UHGV virus genome: UHGV-0366180
From: a virus
Direction: 5' to 3' (one strand)
DNA: 19,310 nucleotides
Part shown: one piece after another, positions 720 through 9,615 of the stretch
Numbering within the stretch: the first letter of the stretch is position 1
How the letters are laid out: every line of letters starts with the position of its first letter
Program-made: the position numbers and the translations under genes
The notes under the pieces: generated by a model
What the model was told of the DNA's origin: nothing
Seen by the model: only the letters and a program-made list of their open reading frames with translations
The model's database searches: none

Positions 720-926
720 TTAAATCTTTTTAGAAAACTTCGCAAAGAGTTCTCTTAGTTTTTCAGTGATACCTAACTGTATCTCTAATATTTCGAAGAT
801 AACCCATAGTAACATGGCTCCAAACAATGAACCTTGTTCAAAGTCAGTAAATAGGTTAACGATAAGCATACCAATCACAATAGCTGGTGCATCAACAACC
901 AAACCTTCCCAAATGCGTTTAAGCAT
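720..926 (-). CDS. Small hydrophobic protein, probable membrane protein (68 aa)
   Basis: ATG at 926..924 with SD GAGGTGA 5 nt upstream; long hydrophobic stretches (AIVIGMLIVNLF, LFGAMLLWVIFEIL); overlaps the upstream gene's stop by 8 nt. Confidence 0.4.
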   Translation of the reverse strand: MLKRIWEGLVVDAPAIVIGMLIVNLFTDFEQGSLFGAMLLWVIFEILEIQLGITEKLRELFAKFSKKI

Positions 927-1161
927 TATTCACCTCTGCCATAAAATTCTGTAGCGTACCAACAGGTTTTAGGTTTTGCCCATCAGTTTTCATGATGAAT
1001 GGCATCTGACGAACTGGCATCTGTGCAATATCAATCAGGTCTGATAGTTCATAGTCCTGCCCTAACATTCTCACAACATGGTCAATACCACGAGCTTTTG
1101 CAAAATTCTTTGCAGTCTCGCACTGAGGGCATCCAGTTTTGGAGTAAATTACATAAGTCAT
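919..1161 (-). CDS. Glutaredoxin/NrdH-like redoxin (80 aa)
   Basis: CPQC active-site motif near the N-terminus (YSKTGCPQCETAK); typical size; sits immediately downstream of nrdB with its ATG overlapping the nrdB stop (TAATG); SD GAGG. Confidence 0.65.
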   Translation of the reverse strand: MTYVIYSKTGCPQCETAKNFAKARGIDHVVRMLGQDYELSDLIDIAQMPVRQMPFIMKTDGQNLKPVGTLQNFMAEVNNA

Positions 1162-2543: not shown

Positions 2544-4778
2544 CTAAACACCACAACCCTCGCAATAAGCATCTTGTAGTGCAGATTTACCTACACCAAT
2601 GCGACTGTTAAGGTAGTACATGGTTTTCATACCTACTGAGTTGGCATAAATCATATACTTCAAAGCTTGAGCCAATGATACCTTCTTCGCTTTTGCGTAG
2701 TCAACATAGAAATCTGAAGAGATAGCTTGACCAGTGAACTTTTGAACAATTGCATAACAATCAATCAGGTCAAAGGTGTCAATATCCCAAGCAATTTCAT
2801 AGACATACTTCAACTCTTCGTAATCTGGAACAATAAACAGTACGTTACCAGTTGCAGACTTTTTAGTTAAAATAAAGTCACGAATTGGATACAAGCCATT
2901 TGTTGTATTAGTTGCCAGTGAAGAACTCTCATTAGGCATGTAAGCTTCTAATACGGAGTTACGGATTCCACCATTTTCTTTAATACGTTGTGCTAAGTCA
3001 TCCCAATCATAACGAAGTTTTGCATCATGCTTCTCATCAATCTTCTTGTTAGCTGTCTTTGGAGGAACCCACCCTTCAGGATACTTAGTGAACTTCATGT
3101 ATTCTGGAACACCACGCTCTTTAGCAAGTCTCAGAGAGGCTTCATGCAGATAGTAAGAGTGCATCTCTGCAAGTTCATGAAGTTTCGTTTTACCTGCTCG
3201 TGAAGAGTAGTTCACATAGTTCTTCGCAAGGTAATGAGCCACATTTGTAAGGCCAATCCCAACAGAACGACGCTTCTGAACATGGTTACGCATCGACGGA
3301 TACGGATAATCCATAAGGTCAATAACGGAGTCAACCATTGCAAGAGCATAATAAGCAACGTCAGCGTATTCATCTTCTGAAATTCTCCCTGCAACCAAAC
3401 TAGCTAGGAAGCAAAGAGCCACCTCACCATCCTCTTTCACAGCATCGTCTCTGTAAAGGTCTGTCTCTTTCTCAAAACCATACACTGGCAACACAATTTC
3501 CATGCAAAGATTTGACATCTTCAATGGCTCTTTAAATGGTGTATGTGTGTTTGCATTGTTAGTGAAGAATGGATACACACGACCTGTAGCATAACGCTGT
3601 TGAATAAACAGTTTAGCAATTTCACGAGCCTTGACTCGTCTGTGCTTGACTCCTGAATGTACTGCGTGACCAACTGCCATAGCAAACTCATCAGCAGATG
3701 CTGTGTAGAACATGTCATAGAGTTTTGGTGCATCTTTGTAAGAGAATAGCAACCAATCCGTATCATACTGAACACACTGCCAGAAATAATCATTTGTACC
3801 GAATGAGTAGTCCATCTCGTTAATACGTTTCGAAGGAACCGTTGTAGGGTGCTTCAAACGCAGTAAATCTTCAATCTGCGGGTCTAGAGCAGTGTAGAAG
3901 TTGTTAGCTGAACCACCACGGCTCTTCTGTTTGTTTGCCTCTACAGAGGAACGTACAAGCTTGTAATAAGGCAGTTTACCCATGTGCTCAATAGTATTTT
4001 GACGGATACCATCACCAATAGTACGAGTCTCCATCAGCATCCCAATGCCAGCTTGCTTTGTAGTCATATCATAAGCAACCTTTGCAGCAATACCAAGTGA
4101 CTCAGCAGTATCATTTGCTTTAATCAAACAACATGACGCATAACCTGACTTAGTAGCACGTAAACCATTCAGATAAGGTGTAGGAGCGTTAATCTTCAGG
4201 TCAGATAGGTAAGTGTATAGCTTAATAACATCTTGCAGTCTACGGTTCTTTGGTTGCTTCTCAAAGGCTTTCATAGCCATACCCATAAACATAAATTGTG
4301 GTGACTCAAAAAGTCTTCCCGTTTTAATATCACGGATTCCATATTTATCCCTGAACTGTTTCAACACTGCATAGCCGTAAGAGATATCTTTTGAGTGCAC
4401 AATATAACCTTGCAGATATTCAAGCTCTTCCTGAGAATAGTCCATCTTCTCCCAAAGTCCTGCTCTCTCCATATTTTTAACGAAGGTAACCAGCGTAGGA
4501 ACCTTAGTAAAGCCTCCAAAGGCTTCTTTGTAGATAATCCCCAGAAGTAGCCGTCCAGCCATGTCTGAGTACTCTTGAGTTTGTTTATCAACACAAACAT
4601 CAATCATAGCTTGGTGCATCTCTTTTGTGGTGCAACCTTCATAGACACGTTTCATGGCTTCCATAGTGACTTCTGACCAGATGATTCCACGCTTATCTGC
4701 CCATGATGCCCACTTATTCAGTCTTTCTGGGTCAAAGCTTACTACTGTACCGTTTGATTTTTTAATTGTCTTAATCAT
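2544..4778 (-). CDS. nrdA: Ribonucleotide reductase class I large subunit (744 aa)
   Basis: N-terminal ATP-cone-like region (KKSNGTVVSFDPERLNKW); catalytic motif SNLCMEIVLP (class Ia NxCxE); C-terminal CxxC tail (YCEGCGV); ATG at 4778..4776. Confidence 0.9.
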   Translation of the reverse strand: MIKTIKKSNGTVVSFDPERLNKWASWADKRGIIWSEVTMEAMKRVYEGCTTKEMHQAMIDVCVDKQTQEYSDMAGRLLLGIIYKEAFGGFTKVPTLVTFVKNMERAGLWEKMDYSQEELEYLQGYIVHSKDISYGYAVLKQFRDKYGIRDIKTGRLFESPQFMFMGMAMKAFEKQPKNRRLQDVIKLYTYLSDLKINAPTPYLNGLRATKSGYASCCLIKANDTAESLGIAAKVAYDMTTKQAGIGMLMETRTIGDGIRQNTIEHMGKLPYYKLVRSSVEANKQKSRGGSANNFYTALDPQIEDLLRLKHPTTVPSKRINEMDYSFGTNDYFWQCVQYDTDWLLFSYKDAPKLYDMFYTASADEFAMAVGHAVHSGVKHRRVKAREIAKLFIQQRYATGRVYPFFTNNANTHTPFKEPLKMSNLCMEIVLPVYGFEKETDLYRDDAVKEDGEVALCFLASLVAGRISEDEYADVAYYALAMVDSVIDLMDYPYPSMRNHVQKRRSVGIGLTNVAHYLAKNYVNYSSRAGKTKLHELAEMHSYYLHEASLRLAKERGVPEYMKFTKYPEGWVPPKTANKKIDEKHDAKLRYDWDDLAQRIKENGGIRNSVLEAYMPNESSSLATNTTNGLYPIRDFILTKKSATGNVLFIVPDYEELKYVYEIAWDIDTFDLIDCYAIVQKFTGQAISSDFYVDYAKAKKVSLAQALKYMIYANSVGMKTMYYLNSRIGVGKSALQDAYCEGCGV

Positions 4779-4824: not shown

Positions 4825-5157
4825 TTAAATCTTGAAAATTTGCTCATTCTGCCACATATCGTAAAACTTATCACTTACCTTTGTGACTGACGAAGTGTGC
4901 ATACAATTTACGAACCATGATATATTACTATTCATAATTATTTCAAGCTGTTTTGTGACATCCACATTCATGTCTTCAACAACATAATTACCTCGCATCT
5001 TGCAAACAATTCTTCCAAACAAGATTGCACTTCTACCTCTTCGGTCATCACAGTACATAACTGTGTCCCCGTGCTTAACATCTTGTCCGAGGCTGTCAAC
5101 GCCTAACTTAGCACCTGAGACAATATCATCATAAGATAGCTTTTTTGCTTTAGACAC
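4825..5157 (-). CDS. Hypothetical protein (110 aa), probable GTG start
   Basis: ORF-track start is GTG at 5157..5155, preceded by GGAG 7 nt upstream and overlapping the upstream stop; the first in-frame ATG is much further in (residue 34). Confidence 0.4.
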   Translation of the reverse strand: MSKAKKLSYDDIVSGAKLGVDSLGQDVKHGDTVMYCDDRRGRSAILFGRIVCKMRGNYVVEDMNVDVTKQLEIIMNSNISWFVNCMHTSSVTKVSDKFYDMWQNEQIFKI

Positions 5158-5473
5158 GGTATTTCTCCAAGTTTCTTTTTAGATATAACCAACCATAGTC
5201 AGTCCTTTCTACACCCATAAAGAGTGGAGCCATCACAACTTTACCGAAAGTATTCCTGTGTTGGCAGATTTCAAAGGAATATTCTTTCTCAATGTCAATC
5301 CCGTATTTGTACAGGACTGCTTTTAAAACTTGTTCATTATCCAGAAGTGTATCTGGAGTCTCACCATACTTTTCAAGTAACGGGTCATTCATAAACACCG
5401 TCATAGAAATATTGTAGTTTGAGAAGTGGCTCTTCTGAGCCACACCCTCTTTATTAATGTTCTGTGAATCCAT
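5150..5473 (-). CDS. Hypothetical protein (107 aa)
   Basis: ATG at 5473..5471 with AAGGGG 9 nt upstream; the ORF-track start at 5482 is TTG lying directly against the SD. Confidence 0.45.
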   Translation of the reverse strand: MDSQNINKEGVAQKSHFSNYNISMTVFMNDPLLEKYGETPDTLLDNEQVLKAVLYKYGIDIEKEYSFEICQHRNTFGKVVMAPLFMGVERTDYGWLYLKRNLEKYRV

Positions 5474-6209
5474 TATAACCAACCCCTTTTAACCAGCACT
5501 TCAGGTTATTAGCATCATAATTCAGTTTCGGGTATGAGGTTACATGGAACTGCTCACCATCATAGTAGACAATATCTGCAATCCATAGTCCATTCTCTTT
5601 ACAGAAGTCTTTATCTGCTTTAGAGGTAATTGGATTAACTTCTACAAAACCATCTACACCCAAATCCTTTAAGCTACCTACAATACCTTTGCAGATAACG
5701 CATGTCTCAGATACTACCACAAAAAGTTCTTGGCTTTCAAGCTCTACAATGTATTCACCAAGCTGTACTTTAGGGAGATTTGATTGCTTCATAATCTTCC
5801 CATCGGCTGCACGGACAATCGCATACCACTCTTTACCATCAACCACTGACATTCGAATAATACACTCTTGACCAGTACGCTTTTCAATGTCTGCAAGACG
5901 TTTTAAAGCTTCTTCATAGTCATCTGTGTACTTCAGGTCATTATTATGGCAAACAGCTTCCATAGCACCGTTGTGGTCATGTTGTGACAGGTAAATCAAA
6001 CCGTCAAGAACATATTGCAAATCTGCCTGAGCATCCAATGTCTCAATGGGGTCTTTCTCTTCAATTGCTTTTACAAGCTCTTTTGCTTCTTCAAGCATAC
6101 ACAGAGATTGAGATTTTAAAGATTCCCAATACTCATTACTGTAAGGTTGCTTTTGAGTGTTTCCACAACGAAGGTTCCAGTTTTTTACTGATTCTCTTGA
6201 GTTAAACAT
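5454..6209 (-). CDS. Two-domain protein: N-terminal MazG-like all-alpha NTP pyrophosphohydrolase domain (tentative) plus uncharacterised C-terminal domain (251 aa)
   Basis: Acidic helix pattern LEEAKELVKAIEEKDPIETLDAQADLQYVLDG resembles the MazG/HisE EExxE...ExxD metal-binding signature. The C-terminal ~125 aa carries CxxC (SETCVICKG) and no motif I can name. ATG 6209..6207 with SD AAGGAG. Confidence 0.5.
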   Translation of the reverse strand: MFNSRESVKNWNLRCGNTQKQPYSNEYWESLKSQSLCMLEEAKELVKAIEEKDPIETLDAQADLQYVLDGLIYLSQHDHNGAMEAVCHNNDLKYTDDYEEALKRLADIEKRTGQECIIRMSVVDGKEWYAIVRAADGKIMKQSNLPKVQLGEYIVELESQELFVVVSETCVICKGIVGSLKDLGVDGFVEVNPITSKADKDFCKENGLWIADIVYYDGEQFHVTSYPKLNYDANNLKCWLKGVGYNGFTEH

Positions 6210-6433
6210 TCGGACTCCTTAAAATATCTGTTAACTTTTAGCTCTCGTGTTTCAATATATTCTAGATGCTCACGTAGCTCTTGACGTTTAAGCATTAGGT
6301 GCTGCATTTGAGATTCAACAGCTTCAACTTCTTTGATTATTGACTCTCTAGCATTTGCAAGGATGCGCTCAAGTTCTTCAATCTTGCTGTCAACTTTTGC
6401 TACATGACTCACAGCTTTGCTTTTGTTAAACAT
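6185..6433 (-). CDS. Hypothetical coiled-coil protein (82 aa)
   Basis: ATG at 6433..6431 (the ORF-track start is TTG at 6448); heptad-like charged sequence (IEELERILANARESIIKEVEAVE); 3' end overlaps the next gene's start by 25 nt. Confidence 0.4.
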   Translation of the reverse strand: MFNKSKAVSHVAKVDSKIEELERILANARESIIKEVEAVESQMQHLMLKRQELREHLEYIETRELKVNRYFKESECLTQENQ

Positions 6434-6454: not shown

Positions 6455-6952
6455 TCAAGCACAATTTGCTTTCATTACCTTATGGATTCTTTTTTCAGCA
6501 TCTTCATAAGTTTCTTTAGTAATAAACTTAATTGCTGCAATATTGGCATTGTAGAAGAGTCTGAGCTTAGAGTCAATCCTTTTTGTCATTACATCGAATT
6601 TATGTTGAAGGTTTGCTTCACCATAGACTAGGCCACCTTTTGTGTAGTAGGTCTGAATGATGTAAAAGTCAAAAAATTCTTTTCCAAAGCTCTCAATATC
6701 TTTTTTAATATACTCAGAAGAAGTCTCGTAAGTCATCCAATCACTCTCCTTAGTGACTACCTTCTTCCGAGTCTTCCCAGCAACTTTTCTTTTTGTCACA
6801 CTGTTAAGCTGTTTCTTTCCGATATAATATTGTCCAGTCTTCTTACAGTGTACTAAATAGACAAAGCCAAAATGTTTAGTGGGGTCAACTTCCCCACATA
6901 AAGATACCCAATGACCGTAGGTGGGGCAATTTCCAAATCCTTTAATCTTCAT
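6455..6952 (-). CDS. GIY-YIG-like nuclease (165 aa); free-standing homing endonuclease or EndoII/DenA-like host-DNA nuclease
   Basis: GFVYLVHCKKTGQYYIGKK has canonical GIY...(11 aa)...YIG spacing. The motif is internal (about residue 30), as in T4 endonuclease II from memory. ATGA-coupled to the upstream HNH gene. Confidence 0.5.
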   Translation of the reverse strand: MKIKGFGNCPTYGHWVSLCGEVDPTKHFGFVYLVHCKKTGQYYIGKKQLNSVTKRKVAGKTRKKVVTKESDWMTYETSSEYIKKDIESFGKEFFDFYIIQTYYTKGGLVYGEANLQHKFDVMTKRIDSKLRLFYNANIAAIKFITKETYEDAEKRIHKVMKANCA

Positions 6953-7449
6953 TCATAAGCTTCTCCGTGATTTGAAAACTCTTTATGTAGTTCTTCTCTT
7001 TTCTTTGTGACTGCATCTTTGGCATCTTCAATACTGTCAAAATACCCCAGAAAGTGAGATACTCCGTGTGTCATAACTCTGGCCTTCCATTTTTGGTTAG
7101 CCTTATAGAAAGATACACCCTTAACTCCAGATGTGTTGTTGGAGTGTGTTCTTCTATTCCAAGAGTTTTCAGCTTGTGTGCAAACCCTTAGATTTAATCT
7201 CCGATTATCATTAGTAATGCCGTTGCGATGGTCTACTCTGTTAGGTAGAAAACCGTCTGTGTACAGGATTGCTAAATCATGAGCCATATAGGGTTTTCTT
7301 TTAATTTTTATCCTAATATAACCTCGCTTATGTGGTGTACCTGCAATGGAACCTATAACTGTTCTGTTAGCTGATTTCTTTATCCACGTAAAGACCCCTG
7401 TTTCGGGGTCATAGTGTAGATATTCTTTAAGTATCTGCTGAGTCAACAT
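6949..7449 (-). CDS. HNH endonuclease with C-terminal AP2-type DNA-binding domain (copy A)
   Basis: HNH motif VDHRNGITNDNRRLNLRVCTQAEN; AP2-like tail GVKGVSFYKANQKWKARVMTHGVSHFLGYFDSIEDAKDA. Start is ambiguous: ATG 7449 or 7464, or TTG 7473; all overlap the flap exonuclease 3' end. Confidence 0.75.
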   Translation of the reverse strand: MLTQQILKEYLHYDPETGVFTWIKKSANRTVIGSIAGTPHKRGYIRIKIKRKPYMAHDLAILYTDGFLPNRVDHRNGITNDNRRLNLRVCTQAENSWNRRTHSNNTSGVKGVSFYKANQKWKARVMTHGVSHFLGYFDSIEDAKDAVTKKREELHKEFSNHGEAYE

Positions 7450-8473
7450 TTGGAGTCCAACCATACTTTTCAAATGAAAAAATATCTGATTTATTTCGCT
7501 CTTGATAAGCTAGGAAGAAATGCTGTTCCATTAACTCTAATGGTGTTTTGGTAACAGTCTGTCCATCCCATGACACATAGGTATAAGAATCTTTTTTAGC
7601 ATAAAGTTCATAGATAGCGTCAAGACACTCTTTGTAGGTCTCTTTACCCTCTAAAGCATTCATCACAGCTACTTTACCAGCACCTTTTAGGCCGAAGTAG
7701 TTGTCTGCATTATCTCCAGCAACAGCCTGATAACACAAGAATTTAAAACCTACGCCAACTGTTTTTGCAGCTTTTGGTTTTGATTTGATAGGGCAATCCC
7801 AGATATCACCAACATTATTGTCAGCAATAAAAATTAGTGGTGACTTTTCATAAGTCATATCAATACAATAAGTTCCTTCAGCTTGTCGAAGGTCTTTGTC
7901 AATACTCATAAGAGCAGCTTTCTTACCCATCTTTTCAGCTTTAGCGATTACGATTGAATCGGCTTCGAAGCCCCCCTTTAAGAGCTTAAACTCTGGTCTT
8001 GACAGAAGGTATTCACGACAAGCAACTAAGTGTGTTGGTGTGACAGCATCTTTACGGTTGCCTTGATATTGGTGCTCAAGACCTTTAACGTCTTTATGTT
8101 TATGCACACCTTTCTCTGTTAAATAGCCTACCCAAGTTCTCTCTTTCCCAACAACCTTAAGCCATTCCTGAAGCACCTGTTGAGTAGCCATGATAGCTTC
8201 TTTTTCACTCTTAGCTTCTTTCCAAGTCTGTCTTTCCCATTCATCTTCATCAAATGTCAGGCCAAGCTCTTCCACAAGGATTCTCTGGTCTGCTAACCAT
8301 CTTGCAGCATCTTTCGCATTATCAAATGGTTCAGATTCTTCTGCTGTGAGTTTATTAACGTATTTATACTTTGCTTTCTCAACTACACAAGCACCTTTAT
8401 AGGCAATGCTGTCAGAGTCAATAAAGACATGTGTAACTGAATCGGGAAGCTTTGTTAATGTGTACTTCTCCAT
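7427..8473 (-). CDS. 5'-3' exonuclease / flap endonuclease (FEN, RNase H-like; T7 gp6 / T4 RNase H class), 348 aa
   Basis: N-terminal PIN-like VFIDSDSIAYKGA; downstream AGDNADNYFGLKGAGKVAV resembling the GDxxDN helix-hairpin-helix region of phage FEN nucleases; ATG 8473..8471 with SD GGAG. Confidence 0.75.
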   Translation of the reverse strand: MEKYTLTKLPDSVTHVFIDSDSIAYKGACVVEKAKYKYVNKLTAEESEPFDNAKDAARWLADQRILVEELGLTFDEDEWERQTWKEAKSEKEAIMATQQVLQEWLKVVGKERTWVGYLTEKGVHKHKDVKGLEHQYQGNRKDAVTPTHLVACREYLLSRPEFKLLKGGFEADSIVIAKAEKMGKKAALMSIDKDLRQAEGTYCIDMTYEKSPLIFIADNNVGDIWDCPIKSKPKAAKTVGVGFKFLCYQAVAGDNADNYFGLKGAGKVAVMNALEGKETYKECLDAIYELYAKKDSYTYVSWDGQTVTKTPLELMEQHFFLAYQERNKSDIFSFEKYGWTPNVDSADT

Positions 8474-8535: not shown

Positions 8536-9393
8536 TTAGTCTTCTGTATCGAAGTCTTCATCTTCTTCGTCATCTGGGTCTGGCAAGTCTTCATCGTCAC
8601 CATCATCAGAATCATTCGAAGATTTATGGTCTGTTGCGTCTTCTTCAGTGATTTCACCGTTATCTTCGACACCATCAAGACCAAGCATAGCCAGTTCATC
8701 TTCATCCAGTTCAGGTTCACCGTTAGCACCGTTACCACCAGTGTAAGGTACAAGAGTATCAATGATAAACTGTTCCTGAATAGGCTTTGTCAAGACATTG
8801 TTCTCAAAAGTGTAGAAGTGAGTAGAAAGAATCACACTACCAAAAGAACCGTTACCAACTGCAATATCTGGATGAATTACATCATAGTTCTTATCATCTT
8901 CATGTTTGTCAGATGCTTGAGCTTTGATTTTCTTCATCGGCTGCTTAACAGCTACACGCTTACCATTTACTTCTTCAATCAGCATTACAGGGAATGACTG
9001 TTTAGCTGTCCATACAGCACCATCTTTATAAGCTGCTGCACGACTTACTTTCAAGATGTAGTAAGTGTCTGCTTCAAATGGTGGTTTGCAACCAAACTTC
9101 TCTTCGAAGTCATCTGCATCAACTGCTTCAGTGGTAACTTTATCCCAACCTTCTGGGTTTTTCTTAGACTTAGTAAACTCTTTAAACAGCTTGTTACCAT
9201 CTTCTGCCAGAATTGAAACGCTGTAGTTACAGTCTTTGCCTGGGAATTTCTTATCAATGGACTTGCCTTTTCCCGGACGTGGTGAAGTGTTCAGGTAATA
9301 AAACCAGACATCTTTCAGCAGGTAACGCAAAGTTTGACGCTCAGTACCATTGTACTTCTCTACCGGAGCTTTCATTTTAACAACTTTAGACAT
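8536..9393 (-). CDS. Single-stranded DNA-binding protein with acidic C-terminal tail (T7 gp2.5-like), 285 aa
   Basis: The final ~45 residues are almost entirely Asp/Glu and end ...DEEDEDFDTED, the hallmark of phage SSB tails. Position in a T7-type replisome cluster, with its own promoter and terminator. The OB-fold itself was not verifiable by eye. Confidence 0.6.
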   Translation of the reverse strand: MSKVVKMKAPVEKYNGTERQTLRYLLKDVWFYYLNTSPRPGKGKSIDKKFPGKDCNYSVSILAEDGNKLFKEFTKSKKNPEGWDKVTTEAVDADDFEEKFGCKPPFEADTYYILKVSRAAAYKDGAVWTAKQSFPVMLIEEVNGKRVAVKQPMKKIKAQASDKHEDDKNYDVIHPDIAVGNGSFGSVILSTHFYTFENNVLTKPIQEQFIIDTLVPYTGGNGANGEPELDEDELAMLGLDGVEDNGEITEEDATDHKSSNDSDDGDDEDLPDPDDEEDEDFDTED

Positions 9394-9429
9394 TATTTAA
9401 ACCTCTATCTCAATTTATGAAGAGTACCA

Positions 9430-9458
9430 ATTCTAATTTGTTGATACTCTATTGTCAA
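9430..9458 (-). promoter_or_regulatory. Sigma70-type promoter driving the SSB gene
   Basis: Minus strand TTGACA (9458..9453), 17-nt spacer, TAGAAT (9435..9430); about 35 nt upstream of the SSB ATG. Confidence 0.5.
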
Positions 9459-9465
9459 ACATTAA

Positions 9466-9615
9466 TTACTGGAAGTTGTGCTTATCTTTAGAAGCTGCTT
9501 TACGTGCAGTTTTTCCAGTTCTTACACGCTTCTCTTCATAGTATTTTGCTGGTTTACCAGCAGTGGCTTTTAAGGAATCCCCAAAAACTTTTTCAAATGC
9601 TTTAGAGTGTTTCAT
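9466..9615 (-). CDS. Small basic protein (49 aa), absent from the ORF track because it is under 60 aa
   Basis: ATG 9615..9613 with SD GGAG 7 nt upstream, ATGA-coupled to the upstream ORF; hand translation MKHSKAFEKVFGDSLKATAGKPAKYYEEKRVRTGKTARKAASKDKHNFQ, stop TAA 9468..9466. Confidence 0.35.
   Translation of the reverse strand: MKHSKAFEKVFGDSLKATAGKPAKYYEEKRVRTGKTARKAASKDKHNFQ

Follow-up and report, generated by a model that had tools for sequence, protein, structure and literature searches.

The 19,310-nucleotide stretch of viral DNA analysed here (UHGV virus genome UHGV-0366180, hereafter the window) is part of a Felix O1-like myovirus, and carries a minus-strand gene whose product joins an all-alpha nucleoside triphosphate (NTP) pyrophosphohydrolase module to a C-terminal half predicted to adopt a thioredoxin fold bearing a CxxC motif (Table 1). 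A preliminary description of the open reading frame (ORF), drawn from the sequence alone, gave its coordinates exactly, with the strand having to be corrected to minus, and the two peptides it quoted, ECIIRMSVVDGKEW and SETCVICKG, are both present in the translation. The ORF sits in a packed minus-strand operon, overlapping the ORFs on both sides by 20–30 nt each, and with its strong ribosome-binding site it has the look of an expressed gene. The 756-nt gene is carried by 237 phage records, all but one of which cover 80% or more of it, mostly at 95–99.6% nucleotide identity (99.6% in phages KhF3 and ECML-1), and is therefore a real gene rather than a chance ORF; nearly all of the carriers are Felixounavirus phages of Escherichia, Salmonella, Citrobacter, or Shigella. 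The whole fusion protein matches PHROG 2144, named ‘MazG-like pyrophosphatase’ (E = 7.8e-102), and the C-terminal domain is found in 303 records of the phage collection, from phages of Escherichia, Salmonella, Erwinia, Shigella, Citrobacter, Pectobacterium, and Hafnia. Among the matches listed, the domain-bearing records are mostly 82–92 kb, with all four of those checked in detail belonging to the Ounavirinae. The fusion gene is a core gene of the Felix O1-like phages (Ounavirinae), in which it encodes an enzyme of the early/replication module.

In both the window and the complete genome of the related phage VpaE1 (88 kb), the coding-strand order begins with a deoxynucleoside monophosphate (dNMP) kinase and a primase/helicase and, after intervening genes, continues through an exonuclease, HNH and GIY-YIG endonucleases, and a small ORF to the fusion gene, with two small ORFs, NrdA, NrdB, glutaredoxin, and NrdD lying downstream. 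The placement among ribonucleotide reductase (RNR) and dNMP kinase genes noted in the preliminary description is thus that of an NrdA-NrdB-glutaredoxin-NrdD and dNMP kinase cluster. VpaE1 also encodes ThyA, DHFR, NrdG, phosphoribosyl pyrophosphate synthetase, and NAMPT, with ThyA encoded elsewhere in the genome, outside the cluster for deoxynucleoside triphosphate (dNTP) synthesis.

Iterated homology searching returned two groups of relatives, the first comprising ~35 clusters of two-domain proteins of 246–259 residues, with identity falling to 39% in Pectobacterium phage Arno162, and the second many stand-alone homologues of the N-terminal module of ~155 residues. Residue conservation was counted over 39 two-domain members, in which E40, E41, E44, D63, C87, N89, N90, K93, K138, K141, and P146 are invariant, and D59 (38/39) and E56 (36/39), together with R133 and D136, nearly so. 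The acidic MazG signature recognised in the preliminary description is borne out by E40, E41, E44, and D63, and by a match of residues 26–85 to the Pfam family PRA-PH (PF01503) that scores 26.7 bits against a cut-off of 21.3. The canonical MazG model, PF03819, is not among the Pfam matches of the query even at E ≤ 10, being matched by some distant stand-alone homologues only. Metal ligands of the form EExx(E/D)...ExxD, together with the basic residues, constitute the motif set of the MazG proteins and dimeric dUTPases (PMC10014863), and from its sequence the module appears to hold the full set of residues expected of an active enzyme.

The AlphaFold2 (AF2) model of this half is an all-helical bundle with helices at residues 4–14, 25–50, 54–75, 79–91, and 98–112, and a predicted local distance difference test score (pLDDT) of 79–98. 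An hmmsearch of the PDB with an alignment of the module gives DR2231 of Deinococcus radiodurans (PDB 2yeu, 5i0m, and others) as the best solved match (E = 2.4e-5), the alignment taking in the acidic helix as well as the R..DGK..K(P) tail, and Foldseek with the AF2 model also retrieves DR2231 (2yeu). The two have the acidic helix, the R/N-x-N-x-x-K motif, and the C-terminal R..DGK..K(P) motif in common, at low overall sequence similarity; DR2231 is a single-domain protein of ~150 residues, to which the phage protein adds an insertion of ~35 residues (a helix and hairpin, residues ~96–132) and the thioredoxin-fold domain. Whilst the enzymatic domain was at first taken to span ~120 residues, the stand-alone homologues stop just past the motif HPKVDLxxF, at about residue 150 of the query, and DR2231 shares the basic motif, which together place the boundary of the module near residue 155. 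The stretch ECIIRMSV...KIMKQSNLPKVQL comprises the beta hairpin and the basic motif (R133, D136, K138, K141, and P146), and is part of the pyrophosphatase module. The N-terminal module is a member of a DR2231-like (COG4696-type) subgroup of the all-alpha NTP pyrophosphohydrolase superfamily (MazG/HisE/dimeric dUTPase).

The two halves of the protein are about equally conserved, with a mean pairwise identity of 0.56 for the N-terminal half and 0.51 for the C-terminal half, and since the latter is conserved about as well as the enzyme, the C-terminal domain is considered to be under selection. The earlier statement that this half matches nothing known holds for curated sequence families, but not for structure, with AF2 models predicting a thioredoxin fold of ~95 residues. 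The full-length model, built from a 13-sequence alignment, has a mean pLDDT of 88.1 and a predicted template modelling score (pTM) of 0.52, with a linker of low confidence at residues 156–158, and a model of the domain alone, built from 22 sequences, has a pLDDT of 88.9, a pTM of 0.80, and the same secondary-structure elements. A four-stranded mixed sheet and three helices (b1 a1 b2 a2 b3 b4 a3) are predicted, structurally similar to solved members of the thioredoxin fold. Foldseek searches against the PDB and BFVD agree, with the BFVD matches led by a family member from Pectobacterium phage Wc4, followed by phage glutaredoxins and thioredoxins. In the models C170 stands directly before helix a1 (residues 171–182) and C173 in its first turn, which is the canonical CxxC site of the thioredoxin fold; the distance between the cysteines, their surface exposure, and the residue at the cis-proline site are read from DSSP strings of the models only. 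The C-terminal half is thus predicted to be a minimal thioredoxin fold of glutaredoxin/NrdH size, though a very divergent one.

Pfam yields no match to Glutaredoxin (PF00462) in the query or in 22 family members, and no Thioredoxin match in the query; Glrx-like DUF836 (PF05768) gives weak sub-threshold matches in 7 of the 22 members (best E = 0.004) and none in the query itself, with Thioredoxin_2 also only sub-threshold among the 22. An NCBIfam search with the domain returned no match, and phmmer and profile hmmsearch against the PDB returned only hits at E ≥ 0.07. Alignment by hhalign to E. coli NrdH, the phage's own glutaredoxin, and a six-sequence glutaredoxin/NrdH alignment extends over b1-CxxC-a1 only, at probabilities of 1–34% (1% for E. 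coli NrdH). With the sequence searches sub-threshold and the hhalign alignments confined to this segment, homology to a named redoxin family is not claimed. The glutaredoxin motifs CP[YF]C, TVP, and GG are absent from the family alignment, as are the NrdH motifs C[VM]QC and WSGFRP, with CVIC occurring in Felix-like members only and other dipeptides elsewhere. Both cysteines of the CxxC are nonetheless invariant, in all 39 members, and little or no variation is seen at S196, A198, D199, W239, and L240. Exhaustive profile searching across 1.84 billion representative proteins revealed no free-standing or differently fused copy of the domain, the ~seven real clusters found all being proteins of 244–251 residues with the domain C-terminal behind a MazG-like module; six further candidates (P0124 and P0126–P0130) were discarded as repeat proteins matching a YYDG stretch. 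The models and searches together point to an orphan sequence family of thioredoxin-fold domains lacking the cis-proline, and existing only in fusion with a DR2231-type module. Compared with glutaredoxin and NrdH, which have the minimal four-stranded fold, the phage domain differs in the lack of a Pfam match, in the missing motifs, in the replacement of the cis-proline by Ala or Gly, and in never being free-standing.

PHROG 2144 corresponds to this protein family from end to end, with its names reflecting the N-terminal half. Felixounavirus records also name the protein ‘phosphoribosyl-ATP pyrophosphohydrolase-like protein’ and, in one case, ‘histidine biosynthesis bifunctional protein’, which nothing presented here supports. 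The C-terminal thioredoxin fold is mentioned in no name among the listed records, and no paper was found that describes the two-domain architecture or its thioredoxin-fold half. What is new is therefore an undescribed fusion of two familiar folds with an atypical redoxin-like domain, in a protein family already catalogued. At least 300 sequenced Felix O1-like phages, many in use for biocontrol or therapy, carry this core gene, and the assignment both corrects its annotation and extends it to the second half, which previously had none. Both folds are familiar and the context is one of ordinary phage nucleotide metabolism, with no unusual chemistry or base modification indicated.

On balance we favour, with modest confidence, a two-domain enzyme that sanitises dUTP or other dNTPs, and whose tethered dithiol module acts with the pyrophosphatase itself. 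The N-terminal module would hydrolyse a (deoxy)nucleoside triphosphate to the monophosphate and pyrophosphate, and the likeliest substrate would be dUTP, or possibly dCTP. Removal of dUTP would prevent uracil from entering phage DNA and provide the phage thymidylate synthase with dUMP, and the thioredoxin-fold domain may serve the pyrophosphatase as a tethered dithiol/disulfide module, in redox control, enzyme protection, or assembly. If the cysteines are functional, the protein would represent a dNTP-pool sanitising enzyme with a link to redox state or metal. The dCTPase-dUTPase gp56 of phage T4 and the dimeric dUTPases belong to the same all-alpha superfamily (see Moroz et al. 2005), and remove dUTP and dCTP, feeding dUMP and dCMP into pyrimidine metabolism; the phage fusion is proposed to have such a role, although no direct sequence match to them was obtained. 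In T4, gp56 serves hydroxymethyl-C DNA. Unlike T4, this phage group has no annotated base-modification genes, and the connection to nucleotide or base modification raised in the preliminary description is unsupported, with no such genes annotated in VpaE1; its interpretation as a whole is partly supported.

The genomic context is consistent with a dUTP-removing role. Neither a dUTPase nor a dCMP deaminase nor a base-modification enzyme is annotated anywhere in the VpaE1 genome, a tblastn search of which with the trimeric E. coli Dut also returns nothing, and the gene set published for Felix O1 is the same and lists no dUTPase (PMC3185647); the fusion protein would be a credible candidate for the group's missing dUTPase. 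Stand-alone homologues of the N-terminal module in three unrelated phage contigs lie at most ~4 kb from class I RNR subunits and a small glutaredoxin, and one stand-alone homologue sits between NT5C and ThyX. The pyrophosphatase is a regular member of phage deoxynucleotide-synthesis clusters, a position that fits the conversion of dUTP or dCTP to dUMP or dCMP, like the role of its nearest characterised relative, DR2231, reported as a dUTP-specific hydrolase in work cited in PMC5122711 and PMC10014863 (Goncalves 2011, Mota 2016).

The neighbouring reductase genes bear on an alternative role for the thioredoxin-fold domain, namely that of a hydrogen donor for RNR, a second NrdH/glutaredoxin-like redoxin whose fusion would couple nucleotide reduction to dUMP/dTMP synthesis. 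The phage NrdA (window 2544–4778, minus strand) ends in ...DAYCEGCGV, a C-terminal cysteine pair of the redoxin-accepting kind, so that the phage reductase depends on an external dithiol donor. However, a bona fide glutaredoxin of 80 residues (window 919–1161; PF00462, 29.9 bits) already lies between nrdB and nrdD, and it is the phage glutaredoxin that is credited with RNR reduction in the paper on the Felix O1 genome (PMC3185647). The fused domain also lacks the glutaredoxin (CPYC, TVP, GG) and NrdH (CVQC, WSGFRP) motifs and the cis-proline. Furthermore, the complete genome of Arno162 (L011 and L012), also one of the Ounavirinae, keeps the fusion (39% identity) and an EP1-like gene, with no NrdA, NrdB, or glutaredoxin found by tblastn at E ≤ 1 and class III RNR alone annotated, and a 16-kb part of a metagenomic contig (L004) shows a like pattern, the fusion being retained and NrdA, NrdB, and glutaredoxin undetected. 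The domain therefore follows the pyrophosphatase rather than the class I reductase in its distribution, which argues for a role in cis, and its retention in Arno162 makes a dedicated NrdAB reductant unlikely. We consider a donor role for RNR unlikely, with the domain probably not being a dedicated hydrogen donor for the class I enzyme, which has its own glutaredoxin.

Several observations weigh against the favoured reading of a dNTP-sanitising enzyme carrying a tethered dithiol module. The sequence does not reveal substrate specificity, with DR2231 only a distant relative (profile E = 2.4e-5), and the tblastn search of VpaE1 with E. coli Dut covers trimeric dUTPases only. The assignment of the C-terminal fold rests on predicted structures, since the sequence links to glutaredoxin and thioredoxin families are sub-threshold, and whilst both domains are modelled confidently, no reliable orientation of one relative to the other is predicted (pTM 0.52). 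The cis-proline expected at the start of b3 is missing, with no proline at residues 207–217 in any of the 39 members, and the residue preceding b3 being G in 21, A in 17, and S in one. In a control alignment of the phage glutaredoxin, three other phage glutaredoxins, E. coli NrdH, and Grx1, the two cysteines and the cis-proline are the sole invariant columns, and across thioredoxin-fold groups the cis-proline surpasses even the CxxC in conservation (PMC2757866). The intervening dipeptide of the CxxC, which tunes the redox potential in real redoxins, varies freely, taking 15 forms (VI, II, AI, TI, PI, PV, PL, PM, AL, EI, SF, FI, SM, TQ, and SL), so that ordinary dithiol-disulfide chemistry is not assured.

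The last two features would also suit a CxxC that is a metal site, holding Zn or an Fe-S cluster bridging two protomers, or a domain that is purely a structural or docking module for oligomerisation or recruitment. As cited in PMC2757866, the cis-proline was proposed by Su et al. (2007) to prevent metal binding by the CxxC, and its absence from all 39 members, like the free variation of the dipeptide, is in keeping with such a site. A related lineage, represented by the MazG-like homologue P0037, has at this position a C-terminal extension devoid of cysteines, a further point in favour. All-alpha NTP pyrophosphohydrolases act as dimers or tetramers, which also fits a role in oligomerisation. 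Against this, only two cysteines are invariant, with C203 lost in 5 of the 39 members, so that metal binding would need a dimer or an external ligand, and no homology was found between the P0037 extension and the CxxC domain. We regard a metal-binding or purely structural domain as unlikely. In P0037 itself (L005 8001–8693, 230 residues) the extension is a different one of ~75 residues attached at the same junction, which by eye resembles a b-a-b-a-b-b unit with a proline ahead of the third strand; considered as a possible degenerate copy of the CxxC domain, it has no detectable similarity to that domain by hhalign (probability 0.6%).

A further reading, which we regard as doubtful, is that the tethered CxxC domain without a cis-proline is no ordinary redoxin but a new functional class of thioredoxin-fold domain that gates or protects the pyrophosphatase. 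Under one version, the domain would be a redox- or metal-sensing switch that tunes hydrolysis of dUTP or other dNTPs to the redox state of the infected cell; under another, it would repair a cysteine of the active site after oxidation, for which the invariant C87 is one candidate. On either version the protein would be a dNTP-pool enzyme under redox control and specific to the Ounavirinae. Residue C87 (codon at 5949–5951, minus strand) lies in the AVCxNNDLKY helix beside the invariant N89 and N90, and its position is only sometimes Cys in the stand-alone homologues, being otherwise M, L, or H. The tethered CxxC may have C87 as its partner or target.

The gene next to the fusion bears on a further explanation. 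The ORF directly downstream (window 5150–5482, minus strand; the start annotated in relatives corresponds to 5473) encodes a protein ~88% identical to EP1 (PDB 9w3d chain G; E = 7e-59), which clamps the beta' subunit's N-terminal helix in RNA polymerase (RNAP) and displaces sigma region 4 (bioRxiv 10.64898/2025.12.17.695035, a preprint of December 2025). The pyrophosphatase might be aimed at a host regulatory or defence nucleotide, such as (p)ppGpp or a cyclic or defence signal, instead of contaminants of the dNTP pool, and take part in host take-over alongside the adjacent RNAP inhibitor. EP1 is an experimentally shown RNAP inhibitor of which the downstream gene is an orthologue, seven loci other than the window likewise have an EP1-like gene after the MazG-like one (VpaE1, Arno162, Erwinia phage PM27, and L004, L005, L007, and L008), and phage MazG-like genes have been discussed as counter-defence factors or (p)ppGpp hydrolases (PMC13155118). 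In contrast, the nearest characterised relative of the module, DR2231, is a dUTPase, no defence-related family was found, and Pseudomonas phage Ab03 has its EP1 homologue, PP1, placed between ThyX and NrdA, where no MazG adjoins it. Host take-over is, in our view, the least likely of the explanations considered here, and a functional MazG/RNAP-inhibitor gene pair, which was also entertained, is weakened by the Ab03 arrangement, from which the adjacency of MazG and EP1 probably reflects shared membership of dNTP clusters.

Table 1. Features of the fusion gene in the window, and positions of EP1-like genes at other loci.
Feature	Locus	Position	Strand	Basis
Fusion-protein ORF, ATG start, 251 residues and stop	window	5454..6209	minus	ORF list, PHROG 2144 match, 237 phage records
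Shine-Dalgarno sequence AAGGAG (plus strand ctcctt)	window	6215..6220	minus	5 nt upstream of the ATG, read from the sequence
DR2231-type all-alpha NTP pyrophosphohydrolase module, residues 1–155, five helices and beta hairpin (residues 116–133)	window	5745..6209	minus	Pfam, AF2, stand-alone homologues, DR2231 profile match
Acidic metal-binding motif, residues 40–63, E40 E41 xx E44 ... E56 xx D59 xxx D63	window	6021..6092	minus	conservation in 39 members
Basic motif R133-x-x-D136-G-K138-x-x-K141, putative triphosphate binding, common to DR2231	window	5787..5813	minus	profile alignment, conservation
Inter-domain linker, residues 151–157	window	5739..5759	minus	pLDDT <50 at residues 156–158; model pTM 0.52 despite confident domains
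Predicted C-terminal thioredoxin-fold domain, residues 158–245	window	5475..5738	minus	AF2 elements b1 160–165, a1 171–182, b2 189–191, a2 197–206, b3 212–217, b4 221–225, a3 233–242
C170-V-I-C173, CxxC at the N-terminus of helix a1	window	5691..5702	minus	both Cys in 39/39
EP1-like gene	L004	8054–8377		
EP1-like gene	L005	8698–8991		
EP1-like gene	L007	6455–6727		
EP1-like gene	L008	6500–6916		
EP1-like gene	L009 (Erwinia phage PM27)	~9266–9535		
EP1-like gene	L012	~33728–33985		
EP1-like gene	L013	4911–5285		

The EP1-like gene immediately follows the MazG-like gene in diverse phages, with or without the fused thioredoxin-fold domain, and an RNAP inhibitor thus has a conserved place in phage dNTP-synthesis clusters, the reason for which is not obvious. 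The protein encoded at 5150–5482 belongs to phrog_4007 and also matches phrog_3506, the ‘thymidylate synthase’ label of which looks like an annotation error spread from the gene neighbourhood.

On the other side of the fusion gene, an ORF of 165 codons (window 6455–6952, minus strand) matches the SegE_GIY-YIG family (PF19835; E = 9.4e-28), and the ‘NAD synthetase’ label carried by its orthologues in the RefSeq VpaE1 and Erwinia phage records appears to be wrong. Adjoining it, an ORF of 174 codons (window 6949–7473, minus strand) has an HNH_3 domain and a weak AP2-like match, and encodes a second homing-type endonuclease.

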